Positions 2,216 to 32,000 of a stretch of 32,000 nt of DNA are shown here, piece after piece. A program made the translations under genes and the position numbers. Positions within the stretch are counted from its first letter, which is position 1. Each line of letters starts with the position of its first letter. A model generated the notes under the pieces. It did not search any database. It was not told the origin of the DNA and saw only the letters and a program-made list of their open reading frames with translations. Source of the DNA: Nitrosococcus oceani ATCC 19707 (GTDB lineage: Bacteria; Pseudomonadota; Gammaproteobacteria; Nitrosococcales; Nitrosococcaceae); NCBI RefSeq assembly GCF_000012805.1, contig NC_007484.1, forward strand, positions 1,320,001 to 1,352,000. The letters are read 5' to 3'.

Positions 2216-2225
2216 AGGAACAGAC

Positions 2226-3683: not shown

Positions 3684-3686
3684 ACA

Positions 3687-14132: not shown

Positions 14133-14810
14133 TTATTTAATTTCGAGCAGTTCAATATCAAAAATGAGCGTTTCATTGGGACCGATGAGACGGCCAGCGC
14201 CCCGCTCGCCATAGGCAAGGTCGGAAGGGATGAAGACTTTCCACTTAGAACCCACGGGCATTAACTGCAGCGCCTGTTGCCAACCTTCAATAACGCCATT
14301 GACCTTAAAGGTAACCGGTTCCCCTCGTTCATAGGAACTGTCGAATACCGTGCCATCCACCAGGGTGCCCCGGTAGTTGACTACGACGGTATCCTCGGCA
14401 GCGGGTTTTTCGCCTTCGCCTTGCTCAAGAATGCGATATTGCAGCCCGTTGGGAAGCTCGACCACTCCTTCCTTTTCTTTGTTGGTTTTTAGAAAATCTT
14501 TTCCTGTAGCTTTATTTTTCTCTCCACTTTCGGCTCTCTTTTGCTGCTCTTGTTGTTGTATGGCGTTCATTGCCGCCTTGGCTTGTTCCGGGGAAAGGCG
14601 CGAGGGGGCTTGTTGCAACGCATCTTCAAGGGCAAGCATAAATGCCTGCTTATCCAGTTCTATTCGTTGCTGCTGCATATTTTGGCCAAATTGATACCCG
14701 ATAAGGTAACTCAGTTTCTGGGCATCTGTTTCGAGCTCCTCCGCAGTGGTGGTTCCTCCAAGGAGGGCTAGGGTGAAGCTAGCAATTAGAAACATGGCTC
14801 CTTTAGGCAT
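14133..14810 (-). CDS. Periplasmic FKBP-type peptidyl-prolyl cis-trans isomerase (Mip/FkpA-like)
   Basis: 225 aa. Signal peptide MPKGAMFLIASFTLALLGGTTTA. N-terminal dimerisation helix region (KLSYLIGYQFGQNM). FKBP core GLQYRILEQGEGEKP..VVVNYRGTLVDGTVFDSS..VIEGWQQALQLMPVGSKW..IPSDLAYGERG. SD AAGGA lies 8 nt upstream. Confidence 0.9.
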   Translation of the reverse strand: MPKGAMFLIASFTLALLGGTTTAEELETDAQKLSYLIGYQFGQNMQQQRIELDKQAFMLALEDALQQAPSRLSPEQAKAAMNAIQQQEQQKRAESGEKNKATGKDFLKTNKEKEGVVELPNGLQYRILEQGEGEKPAAEDTVVVNYRGTLVDGTVFDSSYERGEPVTFKVNGVIEGWQQALQLMPVGSKWKVFIPSDLAYGERGAGRLIGPNETLIFDIELLEIK

Positions 14811-15162: not shown

Positions 15163-15213
15163 AAAATACGGCAAATGCCGTATTTTAGGATAAGAGTTAT
15201 GGCATTTACCGTA
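15163..15213. promoter_or_regulatory. Pair of related palindromic sites (candidate operator or upstream activator sites)
   Basis: Site 1: AAAATACGGCA-aa-TGCCGTATTTT, perfect 11-bp arms (15163-15186). Site 2 (15199-15213), read on the bottom strand, is TACGGTAAATGCCAT, a 13/15 match to the site 1 core TACGGCAAATGCCGT. The centres are about 31-32 bp apart, roughly three helical turns. The sites lie in the AT-rich leader between the divergent FKBP gene and the YcnI-like gene. Confidence 0.35.
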
Positions 15214-15274
15214 ATTATCCTTATCTCCTGTGAGTCATTTTTATAAGCGATTGTATTTAAATTAAAAATTTTTG

Positions 15275-15289
15275 TGGAATAGTTTTTGC
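15275..15289 (+). promoter_or_regulatory. Candidate sigma54 (-24/-12) promoter element
   Basis: TGGAATAGTTTTTGC has the GG-N10-GC spacing and the TTGC -12 box of the consensus TGGCAC-N5-TTGC. The -24 box is degenerate (TGGAAT). It lies about 60-110 bp downstream of the palindromes and about 195 nt upstream of the GTG at 15485. Confidence 0.25.
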
Positions 15290-15484
15290 CTTACTTTAAT
15301 TAAGCGTGACCAAGGATAGCACCAGTTATGCGCTATTTAAATTTTATTTCCTCTTATTTCTTTATAGGAAAGGTAAATTAAGCTATCGTCATTCCCATGA
15401 ACGAAGAGATGCCTATAAGTGTCTAATTTTTTAGAAAATATAGATATTATTTATAGCGTCGAATATGACATAAGGAGATTATTT

Positions 15485-16219
15485 GTGACCCAAAAAACGC
15501 CTCTTTTTTCCCTGCTGTTTGCTTTATGGGGCGCGAGTTCCCTAGTGCTAGCCCATACCGTCATTACGGATCAGGCGACCGAAGGAACCAGCCTGTATAC
15601 GGGTTTTAATATTACCCATGGCTGTGGCTTTGAGGACAAACCTTCTCTTCCGGTCATTGCCCAGTCGGTAGTTTTTCCCAATGGGCCTAATGCTATTGTC
15701 ACCCGTCTGGATACCGAGGAAGCCATTGATTTAGGAGATGTACTCGTTGGCGGCGCCCACGCGGCTACCTTGATTAACCCGGCCATCATTCAAAACCGCG
15801 ATGTTTTTGATATAAATGAATCTATATCGGATGAAACGGGTGTGGTGAGGGGTGTTCATTATACCGAGGGTGGATTGCCCCCTGAGCTCGATGCCGTGCT
15901 GCCTTTCCGTGTTTCGGGGGTCACCTTTGTGGAAGAGTCCTGCGCCACCAAGGTAAGAGCGCGTATTGGGATAGCTAACTGGTGCCATCACCGGCCCGGT
16001 GCTCGTCGGGCTGACGTGTGGATAGGGCGGCTGACTCCGGTGTTTAATGACGAGCGAGTGGTTTCTATCGGCTTTTGGCCTGTTCTGACCTTTAATAGGG
16101 ACCTCGCTAGCAACCCCTTGCCAGCAGACTGTGGCGAAGGTTATGAGGTAGCCGTGGAACCTTCGGATGAGAGTATTGACCAATATTTACCGGTGCCCGA
16201 CTTTATTCCTGGCGTCTAG
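15485..16219 (+). CDS. Secreted YcnI/DUF1775-like protein with predicted N-terminal His (candidate copper-binding protein)
   Basis: GTG at 15485 is preceded by SD AAGGAG (15472-15477), so I prefer it to the ORF-track start at 15419. The signal peptide ..SLVLA|HTVITDQATEGTSLYTGFNITHGCG places His at mature position 1. An HGC motif follows about 21 residues later, as I recall for proteobacterial DUF1775 proteins. Four Cys in total. Confidence 0.6.
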   Translation: MTQKTPLFSLLFALWGASSLVLAHTVITDQATEGTSLYTGFNITHGCGFEDKPSLPVIAQSVVFPNGPNAIVTRLDTEEAIDLGDVLVGGAHAATLINPAIIQNRDVFDINESISDETGVVRGVHYTEGGLPPELDAVLPFRVSGVTFVEESCATKVRARIGIANWCHHRPGARRADVWIGRLTPVFNDERVVSIGFWPVLTFNRDLASNPLPADCGEGYEVAVEPSDESIDQYLPVPDFIPGV

Positions 16220-16253
16220 GCGAGGAAACGGTTTGTGATAAAATGCAAGCTAG

Positions 16254-16279
16254 CACGAGGCGCTGTTAAGCGCCTCGTG
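16254..16279 (+). promoter_or_regulatory. Perfect 10-bp GC-rich intercistronic stem-loop (no U tract)
   Basis: CACGAGGCGC-tgttaa-GCGCCTCGTG, located between the YcnI-like gene stop (16219) and the next start (16320). It is followed by AGCAACTTC, so it is not a canonical intrinsic terminator. Confidence 0.4.
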
Positions 16280-16319
16280 AGCAACTTCAGATGAGCTTGT
16301 CGGACAATCTGGAAACACC

Positions 16320-17207
16320 ATGAGGATGGCGGTGATTTTCCGTGGATTTCTTCTTTTAGCAGCGCTCCTTTCTGGCCATGCATGGGCCTATGGGGAAGAG
16401 TCTTTTTCTGGCTCTGACCGCAAAAAAATTGAAGAGAATCCCGCGAATAATGGCGCTCTCCATCTGGAGGTAAAGCAAGCGCCGCTGGCGCAAATTTTTA
16501 AGATCATTGAAGATCAATCTGGCGTTCAGCTCCATATTTCTTCTCTCTCTCAAAGAAGGGTAACAGCCACTTGCGCGGGCACCGCCCTAGAAGTGTTAAA
16601 ATGCATCCTGGGCAAAGAAGCTAATCTTGTTTATCGGTACGAAGATAAACCTTCTGACAAGAATTCAAAGCCTTTGCTTAGGGAAGTATGGGTGCTCAAT
16701 TCGGCTTCAGGCGAACCGCGCTCGTTGAGGCATAACCCTGATCAAGCTGTCTGCGAAGCCACGGAAAATTTTCCGGATGGACAACATGGACAACAGCCCC
16801 TAGTGGGAGAGGAACAACAGGCGTTTTTCCATTTGGAGCCGGAGGAGATGGAAAGGCTTATGGACCTTTCCCAGTCATCTGATCCAAAGTGGCGGAAAGA
16901 AGCCTTGTCCCGCCTTGCCTTGGTAGCAGAGGACGAGGACGATGGCGGTGTCAGAAAAGTTTTAACGGAGGCATTGCAAGACCCGAGTCCAGCTGTTAGG
17001 GCGCAGGCCATTTTCGGGCTAACCCGGCGGGATGATCCAGAGAGGGAATCGGTGCTACGAGAAGCCTTGCATGACAGCGAGGTGGAGGTGCGATTGATGG
17101 CGGTGAGCAATGCTGGAGAAGATAGGGCTTTACTTGAGATGGCGCTTCATGATGAGGACAGGGTCGTGCGCGATTTAGCTCGCATGAAGCTCGGGAAAAT
17201 AGAATAG
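16320..17207 (+). CDS. Exported protein with an STN-like N-domain and C-terminal HEAT (PBS-lyase type) repeats
   Basis: Signal peptide ..LLSGHAWA|YG. LHLEVKQAPLAQIFKIIEDQSGVQLHIS..ALEVLKCIL resembles the secretin/TonB short N-terminal (STN) domain. Repeats DPSPAVRAQAIFGL.., HDSEVEVRLMAV.., HDEDRVVRDLA are HEAT-like. Confidence 0.7.
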   Translation: MRMAVIFRGFLLLAALLSGHAWAYGEESFSGSDRKKIEENPANNGALHLEVKQAPLAQIFKIIEDQSGVQLHISSLSQRRVTATCAGTALEVLKCILGKEANLVYRYEDKPSDKNSKPLLREVWVLNSASGEPRSLRHNPDQAVCEATENFPDGQHGQQPLVGEEQQAFFHLEPEEMERLMDLSQSSDPKWRKEALSRLALVAEDEDDGGVRKVLTEALQDPSPAVRAQAIFGLTRRDDPERESVLREALHDSEVEVRLMAVSNAGEDRALLEMALHDEDRVVRDLARMKLGKIE

Positions 17208-17226
17208 CACGAGGAGAGGAAAGTCT

Positions 17227-17694
17227 ATGAAAATTGCAGCCTTAAAAAATCAATGGATTATGGTATTGATGATCGCTGGGTTGGGACTCAGCGTTAAAGC
17301 GACGGCCCATGATCAAATCGGCACCTTGGGTGTTGAAGGCAATGCTACCGATTATTATCAGATTATCTGCTCTACGGATGCGGGCGGGGTATCTGATTTT
17401 CTTGAGGTCCAAATATATGATGCCACCGTGGAGCAGGGTGGTGGTAAAATGAGCGCGGTAATACTAAGAGAACCGGTTGCCAGTACGGCCTCTGATCCCG
17501 TTAGGGCGGATGAGTTTTTTAACCACGATAAAAATCCTGGCCCCCCGGCTTTTGTTGGAGGAGGCGATGGAGTTTATAAGGTTATGGTACATAAACTCAA
17601 AAATGGTCCCAAAAATTATCTTCTGTCGTATCATTGCAAAAGCAGCGTTGGTCTTCATACGGGCACGTCCATTCTCCTTTTGCAAGATCAGTAA
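17227..17694 (+). CDS. Small secreted protein of unknown family; predicted mature N-terminus is His
   Basis: SD GGAGAGGAAAG lies upstream. Signal peptide ..GLGLSVKATA|HDQIGTLG. The mature protein is about 128 aa with two Cys (IICSTD, YHCKSS). I recognise no family. Confidence 0.65.
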   Translation: MKIAALKNQWIMVLMIAGLGLSVKATAHDQIGTLGVEGNATDYYQIICSTDAGGVSDFLEVQIYDATVEQGGGKMSAVILREPVASTASDPVRADEFFNHDKNPGPPAFVGGGDGVYKVMVHKLKNGPKNYLLSYHCKSSVGLHTGTSILLLQDQ

Positions 17695-17826
17695 TCGCGC
17701 CCGTTTTATTTTTTCGATAGTCTCCCTAAAAGTCTCCCAGGGTTTCTTCCGAGGAAAGTCCTGGGGGGCATCATGGGTATTTAATTCTGGTAGGATAACG
17801 CCCGCTTATTTAAAGTACACAAGGCC

Positions 17827-18345
17827 ATGAATAAACCGAGATTAGTGTTGTTTTATTTACTATTGGTAGCTATTCCCGCCGTACCAACGGCTATGGCTGC
17901 CGAGATTGGCCAACAGGCGCCTAACTGCTTATTGAAGCCCTTTGAGAAAGAAGATCAGGTGTTTCTTCAGCAATGGCAAGGAAAGGTGGTTTATGTGGAT
18001 TTTTGGGCTTCTTGGTGCCCGCCTTGCCTTAAATCTTTTCCCTTTTTAAATGATCTGCATCAGCGTTTTAGCGATCAAGGGCTACATATTGTGGGCATCA
18101 ATGTGGACGAGAAGTTAAGTGACGCCCAAGACTTTTTAGCGAGAGTGCCCGCTCACTTTGATGTTGTGGTTGATCCAGATCAGCAGTGTGCCCGGTCATT
18201 TGATATTCAAGCAATGCCTTCTTCTTTCTTGATTGACCAAAAGGGCGTGATTCGCCATACCCACTTAGGATTTCGCTCGGGGGATACGCAAGAGCTAGAG
18301 GCGTGGACGCAAAAACTTTTACAAGAAAAAACGGCTAATCCTTAA
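17827..18345 (+). CDS. Periplasmic TlpA/ResA-like thiol:disulfide oxidoreductase (thioredoxin fold)
   Basis: Signal or anchor sequence MNKPRLVLFYLLLVAIPAVPTAMA. Redoxin motif VVYVDFWASWCPPCLKSFPFL (CxxC). Typical redoxin-type (AhpC/TSA-like) thioredoxin-fold layout. Confidence 0.88.
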   Translation: MNKPRLVLFYLLLVAIPAVPTAMAAEIGQQAPNCLLKPFEKEDQVFLQQWQGKVVYVDFWASWCPPCLKSFPFLNDLHQRFSDQGLHIVGINVDEKLSDAQDFLARVPAHFDVVVDPDQQCARSFDIQAMPSSFLIDQKGVIRHTHLGFRSGDTQELEAWTQKLLQEKTANP

Positions 18346-18468
18346 TTTTACGCGTTGTTTACCGTTTAGTTTCCCCTCCCTTTTTTAGCATATGATTGCT
18401 TAATCAATACGCTTTGCGAAGCGCTACAACGCGCTTCGGCGTGTGTTAGATTTAAGGAGGATAGAGAT

Positions 18469-18726
18469 ATGATAAAAGATCGCCAACCTATAATAAGAAG
18501 ACGAAGAAAAACAATAAACACCTTGTTATTGCTACTATTCTTTGTGCTGCTAAACCTAGCAGGTTGCGCGCCGGTAGCGCCATGGGAACGGGGTAACCTG
18601 GCTAAACCCCAGATGGTGCCGGACCCCTATCCCATGCAGAGTGGCTTGCGTTCCCATAGTTACCGGGGCCGAGAAGCAGCTATCGGCGGCGATTCTGCGG
18701 AAGGGGGAGGATGTGGCTGCTATTAA
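18469..18726 (+). CDS. DUF4266 family lipoprotein
   Basis: SD AAGGAGG lies 8 nt upstream. Lipobox LNLAG|C. The conserved PWERGNLAKPQM segment and the C-terminal GGGCGCY tail are as I recall for DUF4266. The 3' end overlaps the following OMP gene. Confidence 0.85.
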   Translation: MIKDRQPIIRRRRKTINTLLLLLFFVLLNLAGCAPVAPWERGNLAKPQMVPDPYPMQSGLRSHSYRGREAAIGGDSAEGGGCGCY

Positions 18727-21262
18727 GCCAAAGCCTAACGCATCTTCTCCCAAGTGCCGGGCCAGCTCTTCATTATTGGCATTAACTTCTGCCGCGCTGG
18801 CCCTGCCCGGCTTGATGCCCTTACCGTCCCACGCCGCCTTCGAGGGGGGGGAATTCGATTTCCAATATGGCCGTTATCAAGAAGGTGGCGGCACTAAGAG
18901 TCAATTCCGAGATAAGGATAATGACATTCAGGTGGATAGTCTGCAGGCTTCTGGAGAAATCGACCTTTCTGATCGTTTGACTTTCCGCGCTAATTTTATT
19001 CAGGACACCTGGGTGGGGGCGACCCCCATTACCACGGCTCCCGCAGCAGCTATCAGATTTAACCCCAATGCCCAAACCGGGGCCTCAGCTTTTACTGATC
19101 TCAAAGGGGGTATTGTGGATTATGACACCCGTACCGGGGAAGGGCAGGCAACTATTCCGAATACCTTTGACACGGTAACCACCAATGAAACGGTGCATGT
19201 AATGGCTGAAGCCTCACCGGAAACCCGCAAGCAGGGAGATTTCCGGATGGGCTATGAATGGGATGAAGCGGCGCTGAATCTGGGGGGCGGTATTTCCTTG
19301 GAGGATGATTATGATTCCCGCTATGTTAGCCTAGGAGGCCGCTGGGATTTCAACCAGAAACTCACCACCCTGACAGGAGGCGTGAGCTATACGGATAGCA
19401 CTATCGATGTCCGCCGTTTCCGCTTCAGGGCCACTTCGGTTCCGGTTGATGCGGAAGGTGGGATAAACCCGGATTTTCCCGACTGGTCGGTGCGGCTCCA
19501 TGATGGGCGGACGGATATCGGAGCGAGTCTGGGCCTGACTCAAGTGCTGGATAAAAACTCGACCTTCCGAGCTAGTTTTGGTTATAACCACAATTCAGGT
19601 TTTCTCTCCAACCCGTATAAGGAAGTCACTTTTTTAACCCCCCTGGATACCCCAGGGAAAGCATGGCTATTCACCCGTTACGACAAACGCCCTGAAGAGC
19701 GGAATCAGTTCACCTGGAGCGCGGGCTATACTCGTTATCTTGCGAGGCTGGATGCTGGTTTGCATTTCAATTACAATTTTTTTCATGATGACTGGGGGAT
19801 CAACGCCCATACCTTTGACGCTTCCTGGGGGCAGCCTGTGGGAGGAGGGTGGATCATTACCCCCCGGGTCAGATATTACAGTCAAGGTGCCGCAGACTTC
19901 TATAGTCCCTTCTTTATTGCCAGCCAGGAGCCCCTTTCATTAGCGGAGATTTTACCTAATCAGAGCCAACTGCCTACCCCGGAGCATTTCTCCAGTGATC
20001 ATAGACTATCTGCTTTTGGGGCCCTGAGCGGTGGGGTGACAGTGAGCAAACAGTTTGCCAAAGGGGTCACTTTGGAGGCAGGATTTGAATATTATACCCA
20101 CGCTGGTTCTCTGAAGCTGGGAGGAGGAGGGACCGGTGATTTTGCCGATTTCAATTATTTTCTGGCTAACGCACTGCTGAAGGTGGATTTATCCGCTCTC
20201 ACTTATTCTGGGGGGGGGCATGATCATGCCGGTGGACATAACGGGCACAGCGATTTTGCCCCTGCCGGGGTAATGTTTAGCCATATGCTGGGGACAGCCG
20301 GCGAATTCATGGTGGGATACCGCTATCAGTATAGCCGCGAAGGCGGCGATATGCTCCATGGCACCCAGGCCATTGATGATCTTACTATTGTCAATAACGC
20401 CTGCCGCGATCGACCCTGTCAGCTAACCTCGGCGGTCATGAATATGCATATGCATATGCTTAATCTTATGTATGCGCCCACCGATTGGCTGAATCTGATG
20501 CTAATGCCCATGTTTATGGATATGAATATGGATTTGCGGAAGCTTGAAGGGGCGCCGCCTATTGATCCCGAGGCCGTGGGCGGACACTTCCATGCGGCGG
20601 ATAGCGGAGGACACGAGACCGGCGGTGTGGGCGATACCCAGCTATTCGCGCTGGTCAAATTGTTTGCGTCGCCTCAACATCATCTCCATTTGGGTTTAGG
20701 CGTCAGCGCGCCGACAGGGGATGTGGGTATTGAGGTTGAAGGTCAAGAGGTTAATGAGAGCAGCCCGGATTTTGGCAAACCCTTATTCATTCACTATGGG
20801 ATGCAGTTGGGAAGCGGTACCTGGGATTTCTTGCCTAACCTGACTTATACGGGTTCGATGGATCGCTGGTCTTGGGGTGGCCAACTGAGTGGTACCGTTC
20901 GCCTGGAAAGCGAAAACTCTTCCGGTTTTGCCTTTGGTGATATTTTTCAGGCCACTGCTTGGGGAGGCTATAGCCTATTCAAATGGCTGTCCGCCTCGGT
21001 TCGGGGCATTTATACTACCCAGGGAACGATTAGGAACCAATTCAACGGGCCGGACCCCCAGTCGGCGCCGGTGGACTTTCCAGAGAACTATGGTGGGCAT
21101 TTCTGGGATGTGGGTTTTGGCCTCAATGCTTCTACCTTAGGTGGCGGTCTGAAAGGCAATCGGCTAAGTATCGAATGGGTGCAGCCGGTCAGGAACGATG
21201 TCAATGGCTTTCAGCTGGAGCGGGAAGGGTCGCTTTTTGTCACTTGGGGTTTAGGATTTTAA
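18713..21262 (+). CDS. Outer-membrane protein: DUF3570 domain fused to a His/Met-rich MetA-pathway-like (annotated transporter) beta-barrel
   Basis: Likely GTG start at 18713 (the ORF track extends to 18641). Signal peptide ..LMPLPSHA|AFEGG. The N-terminal half has DUF3570-like features (..SSDHRLSAFGALSGG..). A linker GGGHDHAGGHNGH begins at about nt 20219. The C-terminal half has FAPAGVM.SHM, NMHMHMLNLMYAPTDWLNLMLMPMFMDMNM, GVGDTQ, APTGD, MQLGSGTWD, and ends ..TWGLGF, a terminal aromatic typical of an OMP beta-signal. Confidence 0.8.
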   Translation: MAAIKPKPNASSPKCRASSSLLALTSAALALPGLMPLPSHAAFEGGEFDFQYGRYQEGGGTKSQFRDKDNDIQVDSLQASGEIDLSDRLTFRANFIQDTWVGATPITTAPAAAIRFNPNAQTGASAFTDLKGGIVDYDTRTGEGQATIPNTFDTVTTNETVHVMAEASPETRKQGDFRMGYEWDEAALNLGGGISLEDDYDSRYVSLGGRWDFNQKLTTLTGGVSYTDSTIDVRRFRFRATSVPVDAEGGINPDFPDWSVRLHDGRTDIGASLGLTQVLDKNSTFRASFGYNHNSGFLSNPYKEVTFLTPLDTPGKAWLFTRYDKRPEERNQFTWSAGYTRYLARLDAGLHFNYNFFHDDWGINAHTFDASWGQPVGGGWIITPRVRYYSQGAADFYSPFFIASQEPLSLAEILPNQSQLPTPEHFSSDHRLSAFGALSGGVTVSKQFAKGVTLEAGFEYYTHAGSLKLGGGGTGDFADFNYFLANALLKVDLSALTYSGGGHDHAGGHNGHSDFAPAGVMFSHMLGTAGEFMVGYRYQYSREGGDMLHGTQAIDDLTIVNNACRDRPCQLTSAVMNMHMHMLNLMYAPTDWLNLMLMPMFMDMNMDLRKLEGAPPIDPEAVGGHFHAADSGGHETGGVGDTQLFALVKLFASPQHHLHLGLGVSAPTGDVGIEVEGQEVNESSPDFGKPLFIHYGMQLGSGTWDFLPNLTYTGSMDRWSWGGQLSGTVRLESENSSGFAFGDIFQATAWGGYSLFKWLSASVRGIYTTQGTIRNQFNGPDPQSAPVDFPENYGGHFWDVGFGLNASTLGGGLKGNRLSIEWVQPVRNDVNGFQLEREGSLFVTWGLGF

Positions 21263-21339
21263 TCGAGTATAGGGTATTTCTCTAGCCTAGGGTTTGGGTT
21301 TTCCGGTGGATAAGCTTTTTTTAGGGTTAAGAGAGTAGC

Positions 21340-22308
21340 ATGAAGCTTTACCGGGAAGCCTTCAAGGCGATGGGTACGCCCTGTGAAATTCAGCTCTATG
21401 CCAAGACTAAGGTTCAAGCTCAACGGGCCGCGGGACTTATTATCGCCGATGTGCGCCGGTTGGAAGCTCGCTATTCCCGCTACCGCACTGATAGTTTTCT
21501 CTCCGATATCAACCGGGTGGCCATGGCGGGTGGGCGTATTTCGGTAGACAAAGAAACAGAAGGATTGCTCAATTATGCAGCTACCTGTTATGGGCAAAGT
21601 AAAGGATTATTTGATATTACTTCCGGTATTTTACGGCGCGCTTGGGATTTTAAATCAGGCGAGCTGCCGAGCAGGGTGCAAGTACAGGAACTGCTGGACA
21701 AAATTGGCTGGGAAAAACTGCGCTGGGCGCCGCCGGTATTAGAATTTCCCATAGCTGGAATGGAGATTGACTTTGGAGGTATCGTCAAGGAATATGCCGC
21801 CGACCGGGCGGCTTCGCTGAGCTTACAGGCAGGAGTTCGGCGAGGCCTAGTAAACTTAGGCGGTGATATCAAAGTGATTGGTCCTCGCCCGGACGGTGAG
21901 CCTTGGCGGATTGGTATCCGCCATCCTGGACATAAAGAAGCCGCGATGGGAATGCTGCTGCTACATAAAGGCGCGATTGCTAGTAGTGGTGACTATGAGC
22001 GCTGCATTGTATTAGATGGCGTTCGTTACGGCCATGTCCTCAATCCTCAGACGGGTTGGCCGGTACGGCACTTGGCATCGGTGACCGTAATCAGTGATTT
22101 ATGTGTGGTAGCAGGAAGCGCTTCTACTATTGCCATGCTAAAAGAGGCTAATGGTTCAGCCTGGTTGCAGAATTTGGGATTACCTCATTTCTGGGTGAAC
22201 ATGGAAGGTGAAACCGGTGGTTCCCTAGAGGAAGGCTCCATTGAAGCTGTTGCTATGGTTCAAAACAGCGAGCGCCAGGCGGCAATCACGGTACTCAACG
22301 AATATTAA
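21340..22308 (+). CDS. apbE: ApbE-family FAD:protein FMN transferase (no signal peptide)
   Basis: 322 aa. Begins MKLYREAFKAMGTPCEIQLY (the ApbE xMGT motif sits at the very N-terminus). Later motifs GGIVKEYAADRA, NLGGDI, ASSGDYER. An in-frame TAA at 21328-21330 precludes any upstream extension. Confidence 0.88.
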   Translation: MKLYREAFKAMGTPCEIQLYAKTKVQAQRAAGLIIADVRRLEARYSRYRTDSFLSDINRVAMAGGRISVDKETEGLLNYAATCYGQSKGLFDITSGILRRAWDFKSGELPSRVQVQELLDKIGWEKLRWAPPVLEFPIAGMEIDFGGIVKEYAADRAASLSLQAGVRRGLVNLGGDIKVIGPRPDGEPWRIGIRHPGHKEAAMGMLLLHKGAIASSGDYERCIVLDGVRYGHVLNPQTGWPVRHLASVTVISDLCVVAGSASTIAMLKEANGSAWLQNLGLPHFWVNMEGETGGSLEEGSIEAVAMVQNSERQAAITVLNEY

Positions 22309-22402: not shown

Positions 22403-23956
22403 ATGAATGACCTCTCCCTAAATTTCCCGGGACGAGCGGGACTCTACTTTATCGTCTTTTTGACTGGCGCCGCAGTCATGATCATAGAAATTTTGGGAAC
22501 TCGGATGATTGCCCCTTTCTATGGGGCGAGCCTTTACGTTTGGTCATCCCTGATCTCGGTCACTATGATAGCGCTGGCCTTGGGTTATTTTATCGGGGGC
22601 CGCTGGGCTGATCGGGCCGAACGGACCGGCCTGTCATTGATCATTGCACTCGCAGCCTTACTCACTCTTCTTATTCCCTGGTTAACTCGTCCAGTGTTGC
22701 TGGCGACCGATCCGTTGGGCCTGCGGGCAGGGGCTTTGGTGAGTGCGCTGGTGCTGTTTTCGCCAAGCTTGACCTTTCTGGGAATGGTGGGGCCTTTCGC
22801 TGTTAAGTTATCCACTGCAAATCTGGCGGGGGTTGGCGCCAGCGCCGGTTCGATTTATGGGATAAGCACCCTTGGCAGTGTCGTGGGAACGTTACTCCTG
22901 GGATTCTATTTATTTCCTATTGTAGGTTCCCGCGAGATTTTTATTGTGCTTGGCCTTGTCCTGTTCCTATTGGCCATAGCCGTAGCCTTTTATGAGAGAA
23001 AACGCCTGAGGTTTACCTCGGCCCTACTGCCCATTGACTTCTTGGCAGCGATAGGAATTGGGCTATTACCACAAATTGCCGGTGCAAATCGCACGGACTC
23101 CAATAAGGAGTCTTTTCAAGTCCAATTCGAGCGGGAAAGCTTATATGGTTGGGTACGGGTTATTGATCAACCGGCGCGGGATCTCCGCCTGCTCACCGCT
23201 GATGCTTCTACCATTGGAGCGGCCAGCATTACCCATGGTCAAAACCGGCTTGCCTACCAAAATATCGTACCGCTCATTCCGGCTTTAGCACCTCCTATGA
23301 AGCGCGCTTTGCTGATTGGCCAGGGTGCCGGCCATATGGCTATGGCTTTGGAAGATCGCTATGGGATTGTCATGGATACGCTGGAGATAGACCCGGCCGT
23401 TGCGGAGGCGGCAATCCGTTATTTTGGCTTTAGTCCCACTGGTAAGGCCATAATTGGAGATGCCCGTTATGAAATTCGGCGTTTAAAAGGTCCTTATGAT
23501 TTAATTATCCATGATTGTTTTACCGGGGGTGCGGAGCCTGTCCATTTACTGACTATTGAAACTTTGACACGGCTACGCTCCCTGCTTTCCGAGCAGGGCA
23601 TACTCGCCCTTAATTTCGTATCTTTCTCGGAGAACGGGAAAAATACTGCATTGGCCTCTATCGCCAAGACCCTGGCGCACGCTTTTCCCCATCAAATGGT
23701 TTTTGCTTCCGAGCCCGGCAAGGATTTTAACGATTTCATTTTCCTTGCCGCTAATCGCCCTATTGATTTGGATGTCAATACACTCACGCTTGAGAAAATT
23801 TCTTGGTTAAAACAACGCCTTATGATAGTGGATAAAACCCAAGGAATCCTGTTAACGGATAATTTTAATCCACTTGAGCATTTGCAGGTACGTAAAGCAA
23901 AACACTATAGAAATATTTTAGTCAATTGGTTAGGCACGGATATTTTAGTGCGGTGA
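22403..23956 (+). CDS. Membrane-fused spermidine-synthase-like protein (polytopic N-domain plus class I SAM-fold domain)
   Basis: I prefer the ATG at 22403 (MNDLSLNFPGRAGLYFIVFLTGAAVMIIEILGTRMIAPFYGAS..), since the ORF-track extension to 22241 overlaps apbE. About 7-8 hydrophobic helices. The C-terminal domain has LLIGQGAGHMA, LEIDPAV and DLIIHDCF. The stop overlaps the wzm start (GTGA). Confidence 0.8.
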   Translation: MNDLSLNFPGRAGLYFIVFLTGAAVMIIEILGTRMIAPFYGASLYVWSSLISVTMIALALGYFIGGRWADRAERTGLSLIIALAALLTLLIPWLTRPVLLATDPLGLRAGALVSALVLFSPSLTFLGMVGPFAVKLSTANLAGVGASAGSIYGISTLGSVVGTLLLGFYLFPIVGSREIFIVLGLVLFLLAIAVAFYERKRLRFTSALLPIDFLAAIGIGLLPQIAGANRTDSNKESFQVQFERESLYGWVRVIDQPARDLRLLTADASTIGAASITHGQNRLAYQNIVPLIPALAPPMKRALLIGQGAGHMAMALEDRYGIVMDTLEIDPAVAEAAIRYFGFSPTGKAIIGDARYEIRRLKGPYDLIIHDCFTGGAEPVHLLTIETLTRLRSLLSEQGILALNFVSFSENGKNTALASIAKTLAHAFPHQMVFASEPGKDFNDFIFLAANRPIDLDVNTLTLEKISWLKQRLMIVDKTQGILLTDNFNPLEHLQVRKAKHYRNILVNWLGTDILVR

Positions 23957-24780: not shown

Positions 24781-26030
24781 TGTTAACTTCCATGGGAGAA
24801 ACCGATCCGGAAATTTTGATTAATGTGGATAATGTTAGCAAGTGCTATCATTTATACCACCGCCCTCAGGATCGACTGTGGCAGTCTTTTTTTCGAGGGC
24901 GTAAAAAATTTCACCGTGAATTTTGGGCATTACTCAATATTTCCTTGCAGGTCCGGCGGCATGAGGCTGTAGCTATCATCGGGCGCAATGGCGCGGGAAA
25001 AAGCACCTTGCTACAGATCATTGCCGGCACTTTAGCGCCTACCTCAGGAAAAATCGCTGTTCAAGGCAGAGTTGCGGCCTTGCTCCAATTGGGAAGCGGT
25101 TTTAACCCTGAATTCACGGGGCGGGAAAATGTGTTTCTAAACGGCGCTATCCTTGGGTTTAGCCGCGCTGAAATTAGCTGCCGCTTTGAAGCAATAACAG
25201 CCTTTGCGGAGATCGGTAATTTTATTGATCAACCGGTTAAAACCTATTCTTCCGGGATGATCATGCGGCTTGCTTTCGCTGTTTCTACTTGTCTTGAACC
25301 GGAAGTGCTGATCATCGATGAGGCTTTAGCGGTAGGGGACGCAGCATTCCAATTTAAATGCAGGGATCGGCTTCAGGGTCTGATTACTCAAGGAACTACA
25401 TTATTACTGGTTTCCCATGATATGAGCGCTGTTAAATCGTTTTGTCATCGTGCAGTCTATATTGAAGATGGCCAAAAAAAGGCGGAGGGTGAACCGGAAC
25501 ACATCTCTGAGCGTTATTTTATGGATGTGCGTGCCCGGCAGATGAGTCGCGTACAACAAGAAAAAAAAGGCAGGGATACCATCGTCTGTGAAAAGTCCCA
25601 TGGTTATGGCACTAGTGAAGGAGAAATTGAGTCCGCTGTTTTTGTAGCAACAAGAGGAAGTGCCGCTCTTTTTAATTATGGTGATACTATTGAATTAAAG
25701 GTTACCTGCCAGTTTGCGTCTCACATAGAGTTTCCATGCCTATCGGTAGTACTCCAGGCAACTAATCTAGTGGGTATAGGTGGGCGCTGGTTCCGTATTA
25801 ACCCGCTTTCTTCGGAATTCGATGCTGCTGCTATTACTTTAAAAATAAAGTTTCCCGCAAAATTTAATGATGGAAAATATTTTATTACCCTAAGATTGGA
25901 AGATCGTAAAGATCAGAAACAATATTTTATTTTACATAAAATTCCAGGCGCATTAACATTTGATATTTTGCCGCGTACTAATAACGATTTATTAGGGTTT
26001 AATGATATAAAACTTACCTGTGAGCAGTAA
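24780..26030 (+). CDS. wzt: Polysaccharide export ABC ATPase with a C-terminal substrate-binding domain (Wzt/TagH-like)
   Basis: The ATG overlaps the wzm stop by 1 nt. Walker A GRNGAGKSTL, signature YSSGMIMRLAFA, Walker B VLIIDEAL. About 150 extra C-terminal residues (from about nt 25572) are beta-rich, as in the Wzt_C jelly-roll domain. Confidence 0.9.
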   Translation: MLTSMGETDPEILINVDNVSKCYHLYHRPQDRLWQSFFRGRKKFHREFWALLNISLQVRRHEAVAIIGRNGAGKSTLLQIIAGTLAPTSGKIAVQGRVAALLQLGSGFNPEFTGRENVFLNGAILGFSRAEISCRFEAITAFAEIGNFIDQPVKTYSSGMIMRLAFAVSTCLEPEVLIIDEALAVGDAAFQFKCRDRLQGLITQGTTLLLVSHDMSAVKSFCHRAVYIEDGQKKAEGEPEHISERYFMDVRARQMSRVQQEKKGRDTIVCEKSHGYGTSEGEIESAVFVATRGSAALFNYGDTIELKVTCQFASHIEFPCLSVVLQATNLVGIGGRWFRINPLSSEFDAAAITLKIKFPAKFNDGKYFITLRLEDRKDQKQYFILHKIPGALTFDILPRTNNDLLGFNDIKLTCEQ

Positions 26031-26033
26031 GAA

Positions 26034-26663
26034 ATGATTATTTCTCACAAATATCAATTTATTTTTATAAAGAACGGAAAAACAGCAGGAACAAGTATTG
26101 AAGTATTCCTTTCCAAGTTTTGCGGTTCTTTTGATATCGTTACCCCCATTTATCCCGCGGTGGAATCCCATTTTCCTCGTAATTACGCGGGTTTTTATAA
26201 CCGCATGACGAGCGCGGAGATTCGGGAGAAAATAGGTAAGAAAACCTGGAAAAATTATTTTAAATTTTGTGTAGAGCGTAACCCTTGGGATAAAGCTATC
26301 TCCTATTATTATATGGCTAAATGCAGAACTGGTGGGAATCTCTCTCTTGACAAATTTCTCGATGGCTGTGAATTTCCCATCAATTTTCCCCGCTATACAG
26401 AACCAGGAAATAGTTCAAAAATTATTGTAGATAAAATTATTGACTTTAATAACCTTATTGAAGGCTTAGGAGAAGTTTTCGGAAGGTTAGGATTACCTTT
26501 TGATGGTTCGCTTGGGGTTTATGCTAAATCAGAATATCGGACTGATCGACGGCCTTATCAAGAAGTTTTGACGGCTTCCCAGGCACGTAAAATTCAAGAG
26601 ATCTTTGCGGTGGAGATTGATTTGCATGGTTATCATTTTCAGAAAGTAAAATTAATCGCATGA
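26034..26663 (+). CDS. Family-2 type sulfotransferase (paralog 1)
   Basis: 5'-PSB-like loop FIKNGKTAGTSIEVFL and 3'-PB-like motif VERNPWDKAISYYY. 209 aa. Separated from wzt by a 3-nt gap. Confidence 0.8.
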   Translation: MIISHKYQFIFIKNGKTAGTSIEVFLSKFCGSFDIVTPIYPAVESHFPRNYAGFYNRMTSAEIREKIGKKTWKNYFKFCVERNPWDKAISYYYMAKCRTGGNLSLDKFLDGCEFPINFPRYTEPGNSSKIIVDKIIDFNNLIEGLGEVFGRLGLPFDGSLGVYAKSEYRTDRRPYQEVLTASQARKIQEIFAVEIDLHGYHFQKVKLIA

Positions 26664-27280
26664 TAGGAATACGTCACCAATTCATTTTTGTGCATATTCC
26701 AAAGACCGCTGGCAATGCCATGCAGAATATTCTAAGCACCTACTCGGAAGATACTATCGTTGTCAGCGGCAATAAGGATGGTGTTCATCGATTTGGATTA
26801 TATAGTCTCTACGGCACCACTAAGCACTCGACTTTGACTGATTATTTTTTTGCACTAGGGCCAGAATCATTTTGGCCAAAACGAAAATTTACCTGTGTCC
26901 GTAATCCTTGGGATCGTGCTATCTCTTTTTATTTTTCACCACATAATAAAAATTATTCCTGGAATAGAAATAAATTTATCCGCATGTTGGATAAAATTTA
27001 TCCAATGACTACTTTTTTGCGCCTACCTGCCCATGTGGCGAGTACAAAACCTGATCAAAACATTGATCTTATTATCCGCTACGAAGATTTACACAAAGGT
27101 TTTTCTAAGTTATGCGATATCCTAGGGATTTCAAGGAGAAGTCTTCCTGTTCTCAATAAGGGGAATCGGAAGTCCTATTTTGAATATTACGATTCCGATC
27201 TTATCCAAATAGTAGCGGAGCGTTTCCGGGAAGATATTGAGAATTTTGGCTATGAATTCGATTCCCCTAAGCGCTATTAA
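26660..27280 (+). CDS. Family-2 type sulfotransferase (paralog 2)
   Basis: FVHIPKTAGNAMQNIL and VRNPWDRAISFYF. ATGA overlap with paralog 1. Confidence 0.8.
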   Translation: MIGIRHQFIFVHIPKTAGNAMQNILSTYSEDTIVVSGNKDGVHRFGLYSLYGTTKHSTLTDYFFALGPESFWPKRKFTCVRNPWDRAISFYFSPHNKNYSWNRNKFIRMLDKIYPMTTFLRLPAHVASTKPDQNIDLIIRYEDLHKGFSKLCDILGISRRSLPVLNKGNRKSYFEYYDSDLIQIVAERFREDIENFGYEFDSPKRY

Positions 27281-27282
27281 GA

Positions 27283-27990
27283 ATGAAGATCGTCATCGTG
27301 CATATTCCTAAGGCGGCGGGTACTTCACTCAAGGAAGCTATTTCCGCTAAAGTAGGTATCGATAATATTCATTTTGATTATGATCGCCCCCTCGCCAGGG
27401 GTGATTTATCAAGGAATGCTCGTTGCTTGGCCTCAAGTATTACCGTTAAGCCGAGAGAAGAATCAATTATTTTCGGTCATTTCCTAGTGGGAAAATATGC
27501 TAGATTTAACGGCTGTTATTTTAGGCGCCGTAAAAAAATATTTTACGTGACTTTTCTCAGAGAACCTTTACAAAGAGCAATATCGCATTTTTTTTTCTGG
27601 AAAAGAACGGCTGTTCAAGGACATCGGGTTTGGGAGCGTTTTACTCAAGAGAATTGGAGCTTAGAAAGATTCCTGCTATCTAGGGAACATACTAATTTCC
27701 AGGCCAAATTCCTTTGGCGATTTCCGTTGAATCAGTTTGACTTTATCGGTTTAACAGAATATTTCCATGATAGCGTAGAAATGCTGGGACGCGTTTCTCC
27801 ACTGCTAAGCGGCTTGCCAATAAAAACAGAAAACGGTAATCCAAAAAATTCTATTGGAGCGAGTTATAGCATTGATTCCTGTCTGGCATCCGAGTTTATG
27901 CGCCGCAATGAATTGGATTACGATTTATATAATCAAGGAGTTAAACGTTTTCTTATACAAAAACACAAACTTTTAAAGGCAAAGGGATGA
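27283..27990 (+). CDS. Family-2 type sulfotransferase (paralog 3, more divergent)
   Basis: IVHIPKAAGTSLKEAI and LREPLQRAISHFFF. 2-nt gap upstream and ATGA overlap downstream. Confidence 0.75.
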   Translation: MKIVIVHIPKAAGTSLKEAISAKVGIDNIHFDYDRPLARGDLSRNARCLASSITVKPREESIIFGHFLVGKYARFNGCYFRRRKKIFYVTFLREPLQRAISHFFFWKRTAVQGHRVWERFTQENWSLERFLLSREHTNFQAKFLWRFPLNQFDFIGLTEYFHDSVEMLGRVSPLLSGLPIKTENGNPKNSIGASYSIDSCLASEFMRRNELDYDLYNQGVKRFLIQKHKLLKAKG

Positions 27991-30900
27991 CTATGACGGA
28001 CAGCTCATCGGTCGTATTTTTGCTAGGAGTGCCCCGTTCAGGTACAACTTTACTTTCTTGGTTGCTTAATCAGCACCGGAGTATTTACTGCCCGCCGGAG
28101 CCGTGGCTGCTGCTGGGACTAGAATCGCTTGGACAGGTTCCTGCTGATCACGTTGCCGATCCGCCTCTTTTGTCTAGCGCGGTTGCTGAGTTTTTAGGAG
28201 CTAGACGATTACAGAGTCTCAAGCGGGCAGCCTTATCTATTTATCAGCACGCCTTGGAGGAAGCGGGAAAATCTGTTTTTATTGATAAAACCCCTCGTAA
28301 CTATCATGCCCTTGATTTTGTGCAGGAGTTTCTGCCGGAAGGAAAAATTATTTTTCTCGTACGCAATCCCCTTGATGTGGCGGCTTCTTTTAAAACTTCT
28401 TGGTCGGTGGAACTTCCAAAAATTATCTCTAATCAGGAAGATACTCCTTTTATTTTTGACTATATTCTAGGTTTTAATAGACTGCTGGATTTTGAAGAAA
28501 ATTATCCCGTGCTTAGAGTTCGTTATGAGGACTTGGTTGTTGATCCTGATGAACAAATGGTGCGTATCTTTAAGTATCTAAAACTCCCACCGCAAGCAAT
28601 TAATAAGGATTTGGACATTCAAAAAACCTCCTATGCCAGGAGTTCTCTCGGCGATAAGAGAATTCTTGCGACGCCCTCTATTCATACGCGATCTATTGAT
28701 GCTTATAAGGGTGTTTTCAAAAAAGGGGAAATTCAAACTCTTTTGAATTCCTTGGGAGAAAAATCTTTTTTTAAATTAGGTTATGCCCAACAATATGCTG
28801 ATGCCTGTGCAGAATTCGAAATAATGCCTTGTCACGAGATCTCTTCACGGCTGCTAAAAACAGCGGAAGGATACGTGCAACGACGCCAGAGGCGTTGTTC
28901 TGACCTCCAGTCACGAGGTATTTTCGAGCAAAAAATAGAATATTTAAGTCAACAAATTGAATGCTTGAAGCAACAAAATGAAATTGCCCAGAAGCGCAAT
29001 CAGGATATTAGTAATGAATTAAAATCCGCTCAGAGGCAAAATAGCACGCTTAATAAGCAGTTAATTCTATCGAGAACAGAAAAGGAAGAATTTAAGAAGC
29101 AATTCCATTCGTTGCAAAATATGGGTTTGAAAGCGCGTTTACATGGGGATCTTGGATATATTAAAAAACGCTTAAAACAGAAAATCAAAGATGGCCTTTG
29201 GCACGTAGTACAAGGGCCGCCCGCACCGCCATTACCAAGAATAACGATAGTTACGCCGGTGCTTAATGGCGCTCAATTTATTGAAGCGACGCTGCGCTCG
29301 GTGCTGGTACAAGAATATCCCGCACTGGAATTTATCATCGTTGATGGTGGTTCCACTGATGATACCTTGTCTATTATAGATAGCGTTCAAAATAGTTCTG
29401 ATTTTAAGGATAGAATTAGTTGTGTCATATCAGAGCCTGATGGCGGCATGTATGATGCTATCGCTAAGGGCTTCTCGCGGGCAACGGGTGAAATACTGGG
29501 ATACCTAAATGCTGATGATTTACTTGAAGGCGGGGCCTTAGCTGCTGTTGGCAGTTATTTCTCCCGCCATCCGAAAGTAGCCGTAATCTACCATGAGGAC
29601 ACTGTTTTGGTGAACGGGTGGAAATATCCCAACGTTCGGCAGCCAAAGGGGATAAATACGGTTGATCTGCTTAATAAGCATATTTTATTTCAGGACGGTG
29701 TTTTTTTTAGGCGGGAAGCTTACCAAACCATTGGTGGTTTACGGCGTGATTTAAAATTAGCGGGAGATTATGATCTCTGGTTGCGTTTATCGGCTCGTTT
29801 TAAATTTATCCGTAGGTCAGGGCATGTTAGTTGTTTCCGTATTCGCCGGGGGCAATTTAGCGAAAATATGGAAGCTTATAATGAAGAAATGGAACGTGCG
29901 CGCCATGATTTTTTATCCCAAGCTTCCCGCTTGCAAATACTTCGCTGGGAAATTCAAAAGAAATATCTTTTTTTCAGTAAATCTATAGAAAAAATTTCGA
30001 GGCGCCACCGCTTATTTTTCCCCCTCGATTTTAGCAATTTGCCGCCACCGCCTGTTAGTTTGTCTGGAACGGAGTATGGACAGGCATTAAGCCCCATTGA
30101 TGGCAAGTTGGCAGAGCGGTTCTTGTTTAGTACTCCAGATACTCGCTTTGGCGATAAGATGATCAATTATATCTACCTGGATACCCGTCATCTCATTGCG
30201 ATTACTTATCCGCCTATCCAGCCTGCTGAACTTGACAGATTGTATAAGCGCCATTATTCTGCGCCGCCCTCATCGATCAATAACCCAGAGAGTCCTTCGC
30301 CCTATCGTCAGTTCGAGGGTAAACGCCCCTGGGAGAAATTGCTTCTGAGGCTACCCGTGGAGCGGTGGCTTTCGTATTTTTTTTCCAAAGATCTCTGGCT
30401 AGATAATACCCTGAATGAGTTGAGTAATACGCTTCAATCTTCACAAATTAATATTCACAGCCCACTTCGAGTACTTGATACTGGTTGTTTTGAGGGCCAT
30501 TTACTCGATGGCATTGCCGCCCGGAAATCCTGGCGAGGTTATGGCCTGGAACCCAATATCCAAGCGGTGGAAATTGCTCGTGGTAAGGGGCATTGTGTTT
30601 GGCAAGGACGTGCTGAAGATGCTGTTGAGATTATTCCATATTCCTATCAGTTCGATGTCATTTTCATGGGGCAAAGTATTGAGCATACAGATGATCCGGT
30701 GCGGGTCCTGCGCCGTCTTCGTCTGCTACTTGCCCCTGGTGGCGTTCTGGTCGTGAGTACGCCTAATTTGGATTCCCGGCAAATTACCTGGTTTGGCCCA
30801 ACTTGGGCTCATTGGCATGCACCCTATCATCGCTATATTTTTTCGAGGAAGGGTTTATTCGCCCTAGCCAGACAAACAGGTTTGCATCCTGTTTGTTTCA

Positions 30901-31926: not shown

Positions 31927-32000
31927 GTAGATTTTGAGATAAGCTTTTCGGTAAAAAAATGAACCCATTCTTGGGAAATTTATACCGGCTTTACAGTTTG

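Follow-up and report, generated by a model that had tools for sequence, protein, structure and literature searches.

Seven co-oriented genes on the + strand of a 32,000-nucleotide (nt) stretch of Nitrosococcus oceani ATCC 19707 (NC_007484.1, positions 1,320,001–1,352,000; hereafter the window, in whose own numbering all its coordinates are given) lie between 15485 and 22308 and encode an envelope module that includes a fused two-barrel outer-membrane protein. We call these genes g1 to g7. Comparison with related genomes supports the view that they form a conserved functional unit, and we judge the chance slightly better than even that this unit is a copper-specialised version of the extracytosolic electron-transfer system composed of a thioredoxin-like protein, DUF4266, DUF3570 and ApbE. 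A relation to copper as such appears probable, while the narrower proposal that the module specifically serves reductive copper uptake falls a little short of an even bet. The four-gene core is already known; the new parts are the fusion, the secreted proteins g1 and g3, and the synteny of these elements. An original prediction, drawn from the letters of the window, had assembled the same seven genes into a redox module with copper-type features, and it is borne out in part: a conserved unit with a copper flavour stands, whereas the core had already been published and some of the domain labels proved wrong or weak.

Recomputation of the open reading frames (ORFs) returned exactly the predicted gene positions and the predicted intergenic gaps of 100, 19, 132, 123, −14 and 77 nt. 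All products from 15485 to 21262 had been expected to carry a signal peptide, a lipobox or outer-membrane features, and export signals were indeed recognised by eye in g1 to g6, with likely cleavage sites at VLA/HT in g1, AWA/YG in g2, ATA/HD in g3, AMA/AE in g4 and SHA/AF in g6, and an LAGC lipobox in g5.

A conserved fusion of two outer-membrane barrels

The product of g6 (Noc_1224; 18713–21262) is an outer-membrane protein of 849 amino acids (aa) when read from a probable GTG start at 18713, within an 873-codon ORF that opens at 18641. This agrees with the predicted size of roughly 850 aa, and the predicted His and Met clusters proved to be confined to the C-terminal third. The N-terminal part (18713–20161), a signal peptide followed by a DUF3570 beta-barrel, matches PF12094 with an E value of 3.8e-137 (458 bits against a cut-off of 25, model positions 2–426 of 427). 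The Pfam match spans only residues 46–507 of the 873-aa ORF, and no Pfam or NCBIfam model and no PDB sequence matched the last ~365 residues, which belong to the C-terminal part (20162–21262). Homologues of this C-terminal domain point to the COG4313/PF13557-type barrels: PF13557 was matched at E <= 1e-3 by 21 of 44 of them (47–73% identity; best 2.4e-13), the N. oceani sequence itself remaining unmatched. Relatives of the C-terminal 366 residues number 546, some located behind DUF3570 and some stand-alone (about 350–400 aa), and several of the stand-alone proteins are named 'transporter' or carry PF13557. At least 120 full-length relatives of g6 were found, roughly 800–960 aa long and at least 48% identical. 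A genome scan with one genome per species yielded 593 relatives of the fused protein, of which the best 80 were kept, giving 78 loci; both barrel domains are present in all 78 and contiguous in 73. These data show that g6 is a conserved fusion of a DUF3570 barrel and a COG4313-type barrel. The original prediction had described the fusion and the three upstream genes as additions here; the scan shows that they are not confined to this genome.

The AlphaFold2 model of g6 (pLDDT 72, pTM 0.56) contains ~18 strands in the DUF3570 part and then a barrel of about 12–14 strands; the mutual arrangement of the two barrels is not reliably predicted. A domain-level fold search matched the second barrel to the COG4313 channel Pput2725 (4RL8; TMt 0.68–0.69 over 327–348 columns) and also to FapF, and a profile search of the PDB with the C-terminal domain gave weak matches to the same two structures. 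Like the COG4313/PF13557 channels Pput2725, SphA and TcpY, and like FapF, the domain is predicted to form a 12-stranded barrel after an N-terminal segment, with target-normalised TM-scores of 0.64–0.70 and a weak alignment of the GDT...PTG...GxGxW motifs. Unlike the COG4313/PF13557 channels, it is fused behind another barrel, and its invariant Met ladders, its His clusters and its Cys pair are absent from descriptions of that family. Characterised COG4313/PF13557 and FapF members take up hydrophobic organics or secrete amyloid subunits.

Met residues are concentrated in the second barrel (15 per 318 residues, against 2 per 447 in the DUF3570 part), and conservation in at least 80% of 36 full-length homologues extends to 13 Met, 9 His and 2 Cys of the linker and second barrel. 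Eight invariant Met, encoded at about 20438–20530, alternate on two neighbouring predicted strands, at positions 576/578/580/582 and 596/598/604/606 of the 849-residue protein, so that their side chains are expected to face the same side. The invariant Cys pair is C564/C569. Before the first strand of the second barrel lies a His-rich stretch (about 20189–20305; HDH..H..H, then H-x-P-A-G-V-M-F-x-H-M), which sits where the solved COG4313 channel has an N-terminal segment that occludes the barrel lumen (PMC4493636). Stand-alone barrel homologues retain the same pattern of Met and His motifs. Relative to the published DUF3570 system, the fused barrel with its Met/His-rich channel is new.

The DUF3570 part contains two ApbE acceptor motifs, Q-D-T-W-x-G-A-T and x-G-A-[S/T], in which G, A and the acceptor residue are invariant in the 36 full-length homologues. 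The N. oceani protein reads VGAT in the first (19013–19024), with V where 29 of the 36 have S, and TGAS in the second (19076–19087). Both lie in a low-confidence segment of the model, residues 102–128, directly after strand 3. Outer-membrane barrels usually have short periplasmic turns and long external loops, and by this rule the flavin-acceptor segment is probably an external or lumen-filling loop.

Certain methanotroph genomes have the fused barrel in two or three copies (L043, L053 and L063, all from one Methyloglobulus genome, and also L047, L051, L062 and L076; locus numbers are our own). The copies of one class adjoin HEAT and FKBP genes but have no g1 or ApbE and, for the most part, no g3 or TlpA, a pattern suggestive of sub-functionalised paralogues.

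Synteny and the secreted partners

Synteny over the 78 loci was counted twice, by tblastn and by unbiased clustering of all ORFs, the latter leaving DUF4266 unscored as it is under 90 aa. DUF4266 (g5) was found by tblastn in 76 loci, and the remaining genes gave similar counts by tblastn and by clustering: 66 and 60 for the TlpA-like g4, 59 and 68 for g3, 59 and 61 for ApbE (g7), 44 and 50 for g1, and 43 and 42 for the HEAT protein g2. Many contigs break off within the cluster, so the counts are minimum values. After the module genes, the next most recurrent neighbour family reached only 11 loci in the clustering, and no further conserved partner (DsbD/CcdA, CopCD, Sco or a TonB receptor) was found among the clustered ORFs. 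Where at least 5 kb of upstream sequence was available (52 loci), the commonest orders were g1-g3-g4-g5 (12 loci, Nitrosomonas type) and g1-g2-g3-g4-g5 (11 loci, N. oceani type); among the 78 loci, homologues of g2 occur in Gammaproteobacteria only. A reverse check that started from g1 homologues gave a consistent picture, with 6 of 7 contexts adjoining a long DUF3570 protein (827–927 aa) and ApbE, usually together with a g3 homologue. These contexts include Acidovorax, Rubrivivax and several metagenomic Gammaproteobacteria, the exception being Methylocalor. The same gene order in dozens of species of Gamma- and Betaproteobacteria goes far beyond chance, and the counts argue that g1, g2 and g3 are genuine partners of the fused barrel, in line with the proposal in the original prediction that they extend the DUF3570 core. 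Methylococcales methanotrophs account for 51 of the 78 loci and Nitrosomonas or Nitrosomonadaceae for 13. Copies from Methylomicrobium, Methylomonas and Methylobacter are among those in the scan, and the module is also present in Nitrosococcus, Nitrosoglobus and Nitrosacidococcus.

The first gene, g1 (15485–16219), begins with GTG inside a longer ORF that opens at 15419. Its product, 100% identical to NOC27_1185, is predicted to be secreted with a mature chain of 221 aa and belongs to an unnamed small family (Noc_1219-type) of which we found 71 homologues. In 43 aligned sequences A23-H24-T25, H45, C47, Q103, C153, C167, W179, R205 and C216 are invariant and E33 is kept in 42. As Ala-His-Thr is invariant at the predicted signal-peptidase site, mature g1 probably begins with His (codon 15554–15556). 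There was no Pfam match for g1 even at E <= 10, no NCBIfam match, and no PDB sequence match with either the single sequence or the 43-sequence profile. The AlphaFold2 model (pLDDT 88) has as its top PDB fold match in Foldseek 3ESM (probability 1.00, E 7e-4, TMt 0.57, TMq 0.35, rmsd 10), a Nocardia protein that was the 'closely related' search model used to phase YcnI. YcnI binds Cu(II) through its N-terminal His and a Glu, with a conserved Trp nearby (PMC8424229); g1 offers His24, E33 and W179 as candidate counterparts of YcnI His27, Glu50 and Trp137. By predicted fold (cupredoxin/Ig-like) and N-terminal chemistry g1 appears to resemble YcnI/DUF1775, and it is not a DUF1775 member by sequence, so the earlier YcnI/DUF1775-like label holds at the level of fold and fails at the level of sequence.

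With YcnI/DUF1775 and PcuD, known from B. subtilis ycnKJI and Bradyrhizobium pcuABCDE, g1 shares an N-terminal His, invariant in its own family, and a predicted beta-sandwich, and its invariant Trp and near-invariant Glu may correspond as well; moreover, PCuAC genes lie near the module in two loci, those of Acidovorax and Rubrivivax. Unlike those proteins, g1 has no PF07987 match or detectable sequence homology, is about 90 residues longer, has no C-terminal membrane anchor and is partnered by an outer-membrane barrel in place of CopCD. Its four invariant Cys and second invariant His are further differences, the latter making a bis-His rather than a mono-His brace possible.

For g3 (17227–17694) a 128-aa secreted protein had been predicted; the mature chain has that length and, in addition, His at its N-terminus. 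The g3 family is also unnamed and comprises about 250 cluster representatives. Among 48 sequences H28 (mature His1) is kept in 41, C48 and C137 in all 48, H136 in 43, and H144-T-G in 42–45. No match to g3 was found in Pfam, NCBIfam or the PDB, the last searched by single sequence and profile. Together, g1 and g3 appear to define two new families of secreted N-terminal-His proteins. Paralogy of the two was considered and rejected, as a profile-profile alignment covers only the signal peptide and the Ala-His junction. Both g1 and g3 are duplicated in tandem in one gammaproteobacterial locus (L005; 10001–11717 and 12776–13825), and single polypeptides of 295–440 aa with two g3 domains also exist (P0313, P0314 and P0318).

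Between these genes lies g2 (16320–17207), whose secreted product combines a conserved N-terminal domain of ~75 aa with C-terminal HEAT repeats (about 16959–17192; HEAT_2 2.8e-11, 44 bits against a cut-off of 27.7). The alignment of the N-terminal domain shows two invariant Cys (C...C) and an E-x-W-x-L motif. Of the predicted STN-like and HEAT parts, the HEAT repeats are confirmed; the STN label gained no support, as the N-terminal domain had no Pfam match at E <= 10 in the N. oceani protein and 10 homologues, and a PDB profile search gave nothing relevant. Over the first ~190 residues of g2 there was likewise no match to a Pfam or NCBIfam model or to a PDB sequence.

The redox core and its leaderless ApbE

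All four core families are adjacent in N. oceani, and the family searches agree with what had been predicted for each. The CxxC thioredoxin is g4 (17827–18345), a periplasmic TlpA/ResA-like thiol-disulfide oxidoreductase with a signal peptide, a W-C64-P-P-C67 motif at 18016–18027 and a Redoxin match of 1.6e-26 (93 bits; also AhpC-TSA and Thioredoxin_8). The NCBIfam equivalog models for ResA, DsbE and TlpA all scored below cut-off, and g4 is therefore assigned at family level only. The lipoprotein g5 (18469–18726), which overlaps g6 by 14 nt, is a DUF4266 protein (PF14086; 4.2e-19, 69.7 bits against a cut-off of 27) ending in GGGCGCY; this C-terminal CXC is conserved in DUF4266 and possibly redox-cycling (PMC8238504). 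Downstream of g6 follows g7 (21340–22308), an ApbE FAD:protein FMN transferase (PF02424, 7.8e-72), where FAD and FMN stand for flavin adenine dinucleotide and flavin mononucleotide.

Clusters of genes for ApbE, DUF3570, thioredoxin-like proteins and DUF4266 were described by Meheust et al. (eLife 2021, PMC8238504), 227 with DsbD and 316 without. In that work the DUF3570 protein of Chlorobium luteolum was flavinylated by its cognate ApbE at two [S/T]GA[S/T] motifs, and a hybrid thiol/flavin relay was proposed from DsbD through the thioredoxin-like protein and DUF4266 to DUF3570, with an uncertain, possibly iron-related end function. The N. oceani locus agrees with this system in the adjacency of the four families, the two DUF3570 acceptor sites, the DUF4266 CXC and the thioredoxin-like CxxC, and it lacks DsbD as the 316 published clusters do. 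It differs in the fusion of DUF3570 to a Met/His-rich COG4313-type barrel, in the conserved secreted partners g1, g2 and g3, and in its leaderless ApbE. The original prediction had described the four-gene core as co-occurring and without assigned function; the co-occurrence is correct, whereas DUF3570 is a shown ApbE substrate with a proposed relay. Neither copper, nor a DUF3570 fusion, nor an outer-membrane location of DUF3570 is mentioned in PMC8238504, and a 2025 review of ApbE does not mention DUF3570. Literature searches combining ApbE or flavinylation with copper, and searches for PF13557, COG4313 and the locus tags, returned no description of the copper-type DUF3570 variant. JDVT-CTERM proteins, recorded beside DUF4266/DUF3570/TlpA clusters (Haft 2023), were dropped from consideration because the module proteins have no such NCBIfam match and no C-terminal Cys-TM-Arg tail (TM, transmembrane).

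The ApbE of the module departs from expectation in its predicted location. The g7 protein starts MKLYREAFKAMGT, about ten residues ahead of the conserved core, and an upstream extension of the ORF is impossible. It has neither an N-terminal signal peptide nor a lipobox, the criterion for an extracytosolic ApbE, and is therefore predicted to be cytoplasmic. Of 58 related loci, 50 allow an N-terminal extension of no more than 18 residues, hydrophilic in character, ahead of the conserved AMG[ST]. A leaderless module ApbE was seen in almost every species (the window, L001, L005, L007, L008, L010, L011, L013 and 58 further loci). The cytosolic ApbEs known so far act on soluble cytoplasmic substrates only (2025 ApbE review). 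An alternative cytoplasmic substrate was considered and dropped, as g6 alone among the module proteins has conserved acceptor motifs, and GA[ST] strings in the protein encoded next downstream (g8, below) fall inside hydrophobic segments. With a leaderless ApbE and a sole plausible substrate that is Sec-exported, flavinylation would take place before export, or ApbE would reach the periplasm by an unrecognised route. For the flavin- and thiol-dependent relay of the original prediction, running from periplasm to outer membrane, an ApbE predicted to be cytoplasmic complicates a purely periplasmic version.

Probable copper handling and competing explanations

Leader ORFs supply one link to copper. 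A small exported ORF directly precedes all four stand-alone barrels examined (L012, 7459–7836; L093, 5455–5877; L094, 5411–5815; L092, 5369–5797, where it had not been called), and in Rubrivivax (L007, 9489–9860) a DUF2946 leader ORF lies directly upstream of g1, ahead of the whole module. PF11162/DUF2946 matched the leaders of L007, L093 and, weakly, L012. In the leaders of L007, L093 and L094 the CALC, CPIC or CPVC motif and the C-terminal RGPP or RAPP are exactly 45 residues apart, and that of L012 has RGPP with no clean CXXC. Such a spacing between CXXC and a RAPP-type motif is the hallmark of the DUF2946 family, whose proteins act in cis to sense copper: in the presence of copper, CruR turns off a TonB-dependent copper-uptake operon, and CutF switches on the multicopper oxidase CutO at high copper. 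The ORFs before the four stand-alone barrels and the Rubrivivax module share an export signal with the CruR/CutF leaders, and three share the spacing; the 78 gamma- and betaproteobacterial loci, searched with two DUF2946 queries, contained no such leader. As far as we found, none of the literature on DUF2946 leaders describes Met/His-rich COG4313-type barrels as a target class. Other copper-linked neighbours are the copper storage protein Csp, encoded near the L012 and L031 barrels, and YHS-domain proteins, encoded near those of L011, L045, L067 and L068.

The copper link is drawn from the Met ladders and His clusters of g6, the two His1 proteins, the host distribution, the leader ORFs and the sporadic copper neighbours. 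The copper reading of the original prediction is strengthened by several of these, including the His1, His22 and Trp of mature g1 with its fold match to a YcnI relative. In the mechanism that we propose, electrons would enter the periplasm through a DsbD/CcdA-type protein encoded elsewhere and pass from the TlpA-like g4 through the CXC lipoprotein g5 to the FMNs on the DUF3570 part of g6. At the outer membrane or within it, the g6 flavins would reduce Cu(II) to Cu(I), which would travel along the thioether ladder of the fused channel. The His1 proteins g1 and g3, periplasmic or possibly at the surface, would take up or hand over copper, and the HEAT protein g2 might act as a scaffold. The likely purpose would be copper acquisition for copper enzymes such as ammonia monooxygenase (AMO) and particulate methane monooxygenase (pMMO).

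This logic of a flavin-dependent reductase combined with a Met-lined Cu(I) pathway has analogues in yeast Fre1/Ctr1 and in bacterial OprC and PcoB/CopB, the latter resembling g6 as Met/His-rich outer-membrane copper proteins. The resemblance is one of analogy only, with no homology: g6 would hold both activities in one polypeptide, and the module would be powered from the periplasmic thiol pool and is not TonB-dependent. A bolder form of the proposal, which we consider unlikely, makes g6 a self-contained trans-outer-membrane copper reductase-importer, in which the FMN loop threads the DUF3570 barrel and reduces surface Cu(II) and the Met-ladder channel conducts Cu(I) inward to the His1 proteins, and regards it as the main outer-membrane copper route of ammonia oxidisers and of gammaproteobacterial methanotrophs without methanobactin. 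Were it true, g6 would be a flavin-based bacterial counterpart of eukaryotic Fre1/Ctr1, and as a corollary the leaderless ApbE would flavinylate the precursor in the cytoplasm and the flavinylated polypeptide would pass through Sec.

Several observations weigh against a copper-specialised module. No DUF2946-type leader was found in the N. oceani window, either in the 674-nt region upstream of g1 or by tblastn of the whole window, and no copper regulator was found at the locus. Clustering of the 78 loci returned no copper gene as a conserved neighbour, the copper-linked ones being sporadic. The likeness of g1 to YcnI comes with modest TM-scores and no DUF1775 sequence membership, and the g6 model is only moderately confident, with the flavin loop unmodelled. 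ApbE is leaderless despite its exported substrate. Keeping only the best 80 of 593 relatives skews the host list towards relatives of the query, and there are divergent copies in Acidovorax, Rubrivivax and Ideonella, none of them nitrifiers or methanotrophs. We found no paper naming the locus tags Noc_1219–1225. Finally, N-terminal-His sites favour Cu(II), which suits them awkwardly to a place downstream of a channel for Cu(I), and DUF2946 leaders govern uptake (CruR) as well as detoxification (CutF) and so give no direction; for these two reasons the direction of transport is uncertain even if copper is the substrate.

The same uncertainty of direction bears on copper detoxification, in which periplasmic Cu(I) would be exported or sequestered by the Met/His barrel, as by PcoB/CopB, and the relay would maintain copper ligands or thiols in reduced form during copper stress. 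Copper resistance typically involves outer-membrane proteins rich in Met and His, the CutF-type leaders would fit, and a multicopper oxidase is encoded near L013. However, the conserved module has no CopA/CusCBA, PcoA or CopRS partner in the 78 loci, the hosts' need for copper is very high, partners of the PCuAC and YcnI-like kind are tied to copper delivery, and the relay supplies reducing power whereas detoxification normally oxidises Cu(I), all of which make this explanation quite unlikely. We find it distinctly improbable that the module uses flavins to reduce iron or some other non-copper acceptor outside the cytosol, a role suggested for DUF3570 systems at large, with the Met/His features incidental or meant for another metal. 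Such a role would accord with the 25 DUF3570 clusters that contain the VIT1 ferrous transporter and with the many flavinylated systems linked to iron reduction (PMC8238504), and TonB receptors, PepSY_TM, DUF4198 and NikR lie near the Acidovorax locus; but thioether ladders and N-terminal-His sites belong to the chemistry of copper and not of iron, the 78 loci have no conserved iron transporter nearby, and copper is favoured by the copper-sensing leaders as well as by the PCuAC, Csp and YHS neighbours.

The second barrel's fold raises another possibility, namely a COG4313-type channel for a hydrophobic substrate that the thiol/flavin relay repairs or gates, for instance by reducing oxidised Met or a disulfide. 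COG4313 channels are implicated in the uptake of hydrophobic molecules (PMC4493636), the Cys pair C564/C569 would offer a disulfide, and TlpA-type reductants feed periplasmic methionine sulfoxide reductases (Msr). This idea leaves unexplained the two His1 proteins, the leaders before stand-alone barrels and the existence of unfused DUF3570 systems without a channel, and Pfam and NCBIfam searches found no Msr domain in the module; we hold it to be very improbable. That the seven genes are mere neighbours and not one system deserves next to no credence. Four intergenic gaps of about 80–130 nt could be cited in its favour, and no promoter or terminator pattern defines a single transcript (in a scan of the locus, promoter-like sites were fewer than in shuffled sequence and terminator-like matches marked no transcript boundary), but the recurrence of the gene order across two proteobacterial classes, with other families in at most 11 loci, effectively refutes it.

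The next gene downstream may belong to the module. This gene, g8 (22403–23956, + strand; start uncertain, 22349 or 22403), encodes a fused inner-membrane protein resembling major facilitator superfamily (MFS) proteins and spermidine synthase, with an NF037959 match of 4.4e-60 (NCBIfam) and about 7 hydrophobic segments. By tblastn, 35 of the 78 loci have a relative no more than 10 kb away from the fused barrel (in the clustering these merged with the ApbE cluster), and in 21 of 65 one lies at most 5.5 kb downstream; a homologue is directly 3' of ApbE in L005 and follows an intervening YHS gene in L011. The g8 protein may be an eighth, inner-membrane member. On the other side, nothing distinctive was found in 15163–15484, and a divergent FkpA-type peptidyl-prolyl isomerase (14133–14810, − strand; FKBP_N and FKBP_C in Pfam) scored 122.7 bits against a cut-off of 100 for the BamJ family NF053689 (NCBIfam). 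It keeps its position in L005 and L006 and is otherwise present in only 6 of 78 loci, and its membership is doubtful; FKBP genes are also found beside those paralogous loci, in Methyloglobulus and related genomes, that have no g1 or ApbE. The flanks consist of housekeeping genes upstream (gmk, spoT, recG, ubiA and a nuclease) and, past g8, an ABC-2 exporter downstream. Farther away, 120–5108 holds a possible uncharacterised operon, in which a DUF6384 protein (1295–2215) lies between ORFs without a Pfam match (120–1298 and 2193–3683) and is followed by a PIN-PhoH protein (3687–5108). At the other end, in 26000–32000, downstream of the ABC-2/ABC-ATPase genes, GC content drops from about 0.52 to 0.37–0.43, which fits a laterally acquired glycan-export or biosynthesis region.

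The outer-membrane copper supply for AMO and pMMO in ammonia oxidisers and in most gammaproteobacterial methanotrophs is poorly understood, and the copper routes known to us (methanobactin with MbnT, MopE/CorA and CopCD) are confined to certain lineages or to the inner membrane. The leaderless ApbE raises the question of where exported proteins become flavinylated, and the relatives of the C-terminal domain of g6 may define a copper-type subfamily of COG4313 channels. The module would place covalently bound flavins in an outer-membrane barrel and would give the DUF3570 branch of ApbE-dependent flavinylation its first physiological role. Concentrated in ammonia and methane oxidisers, it is a concrete and genetically tractable candidate for outer-membrane copper handling by these organisms.

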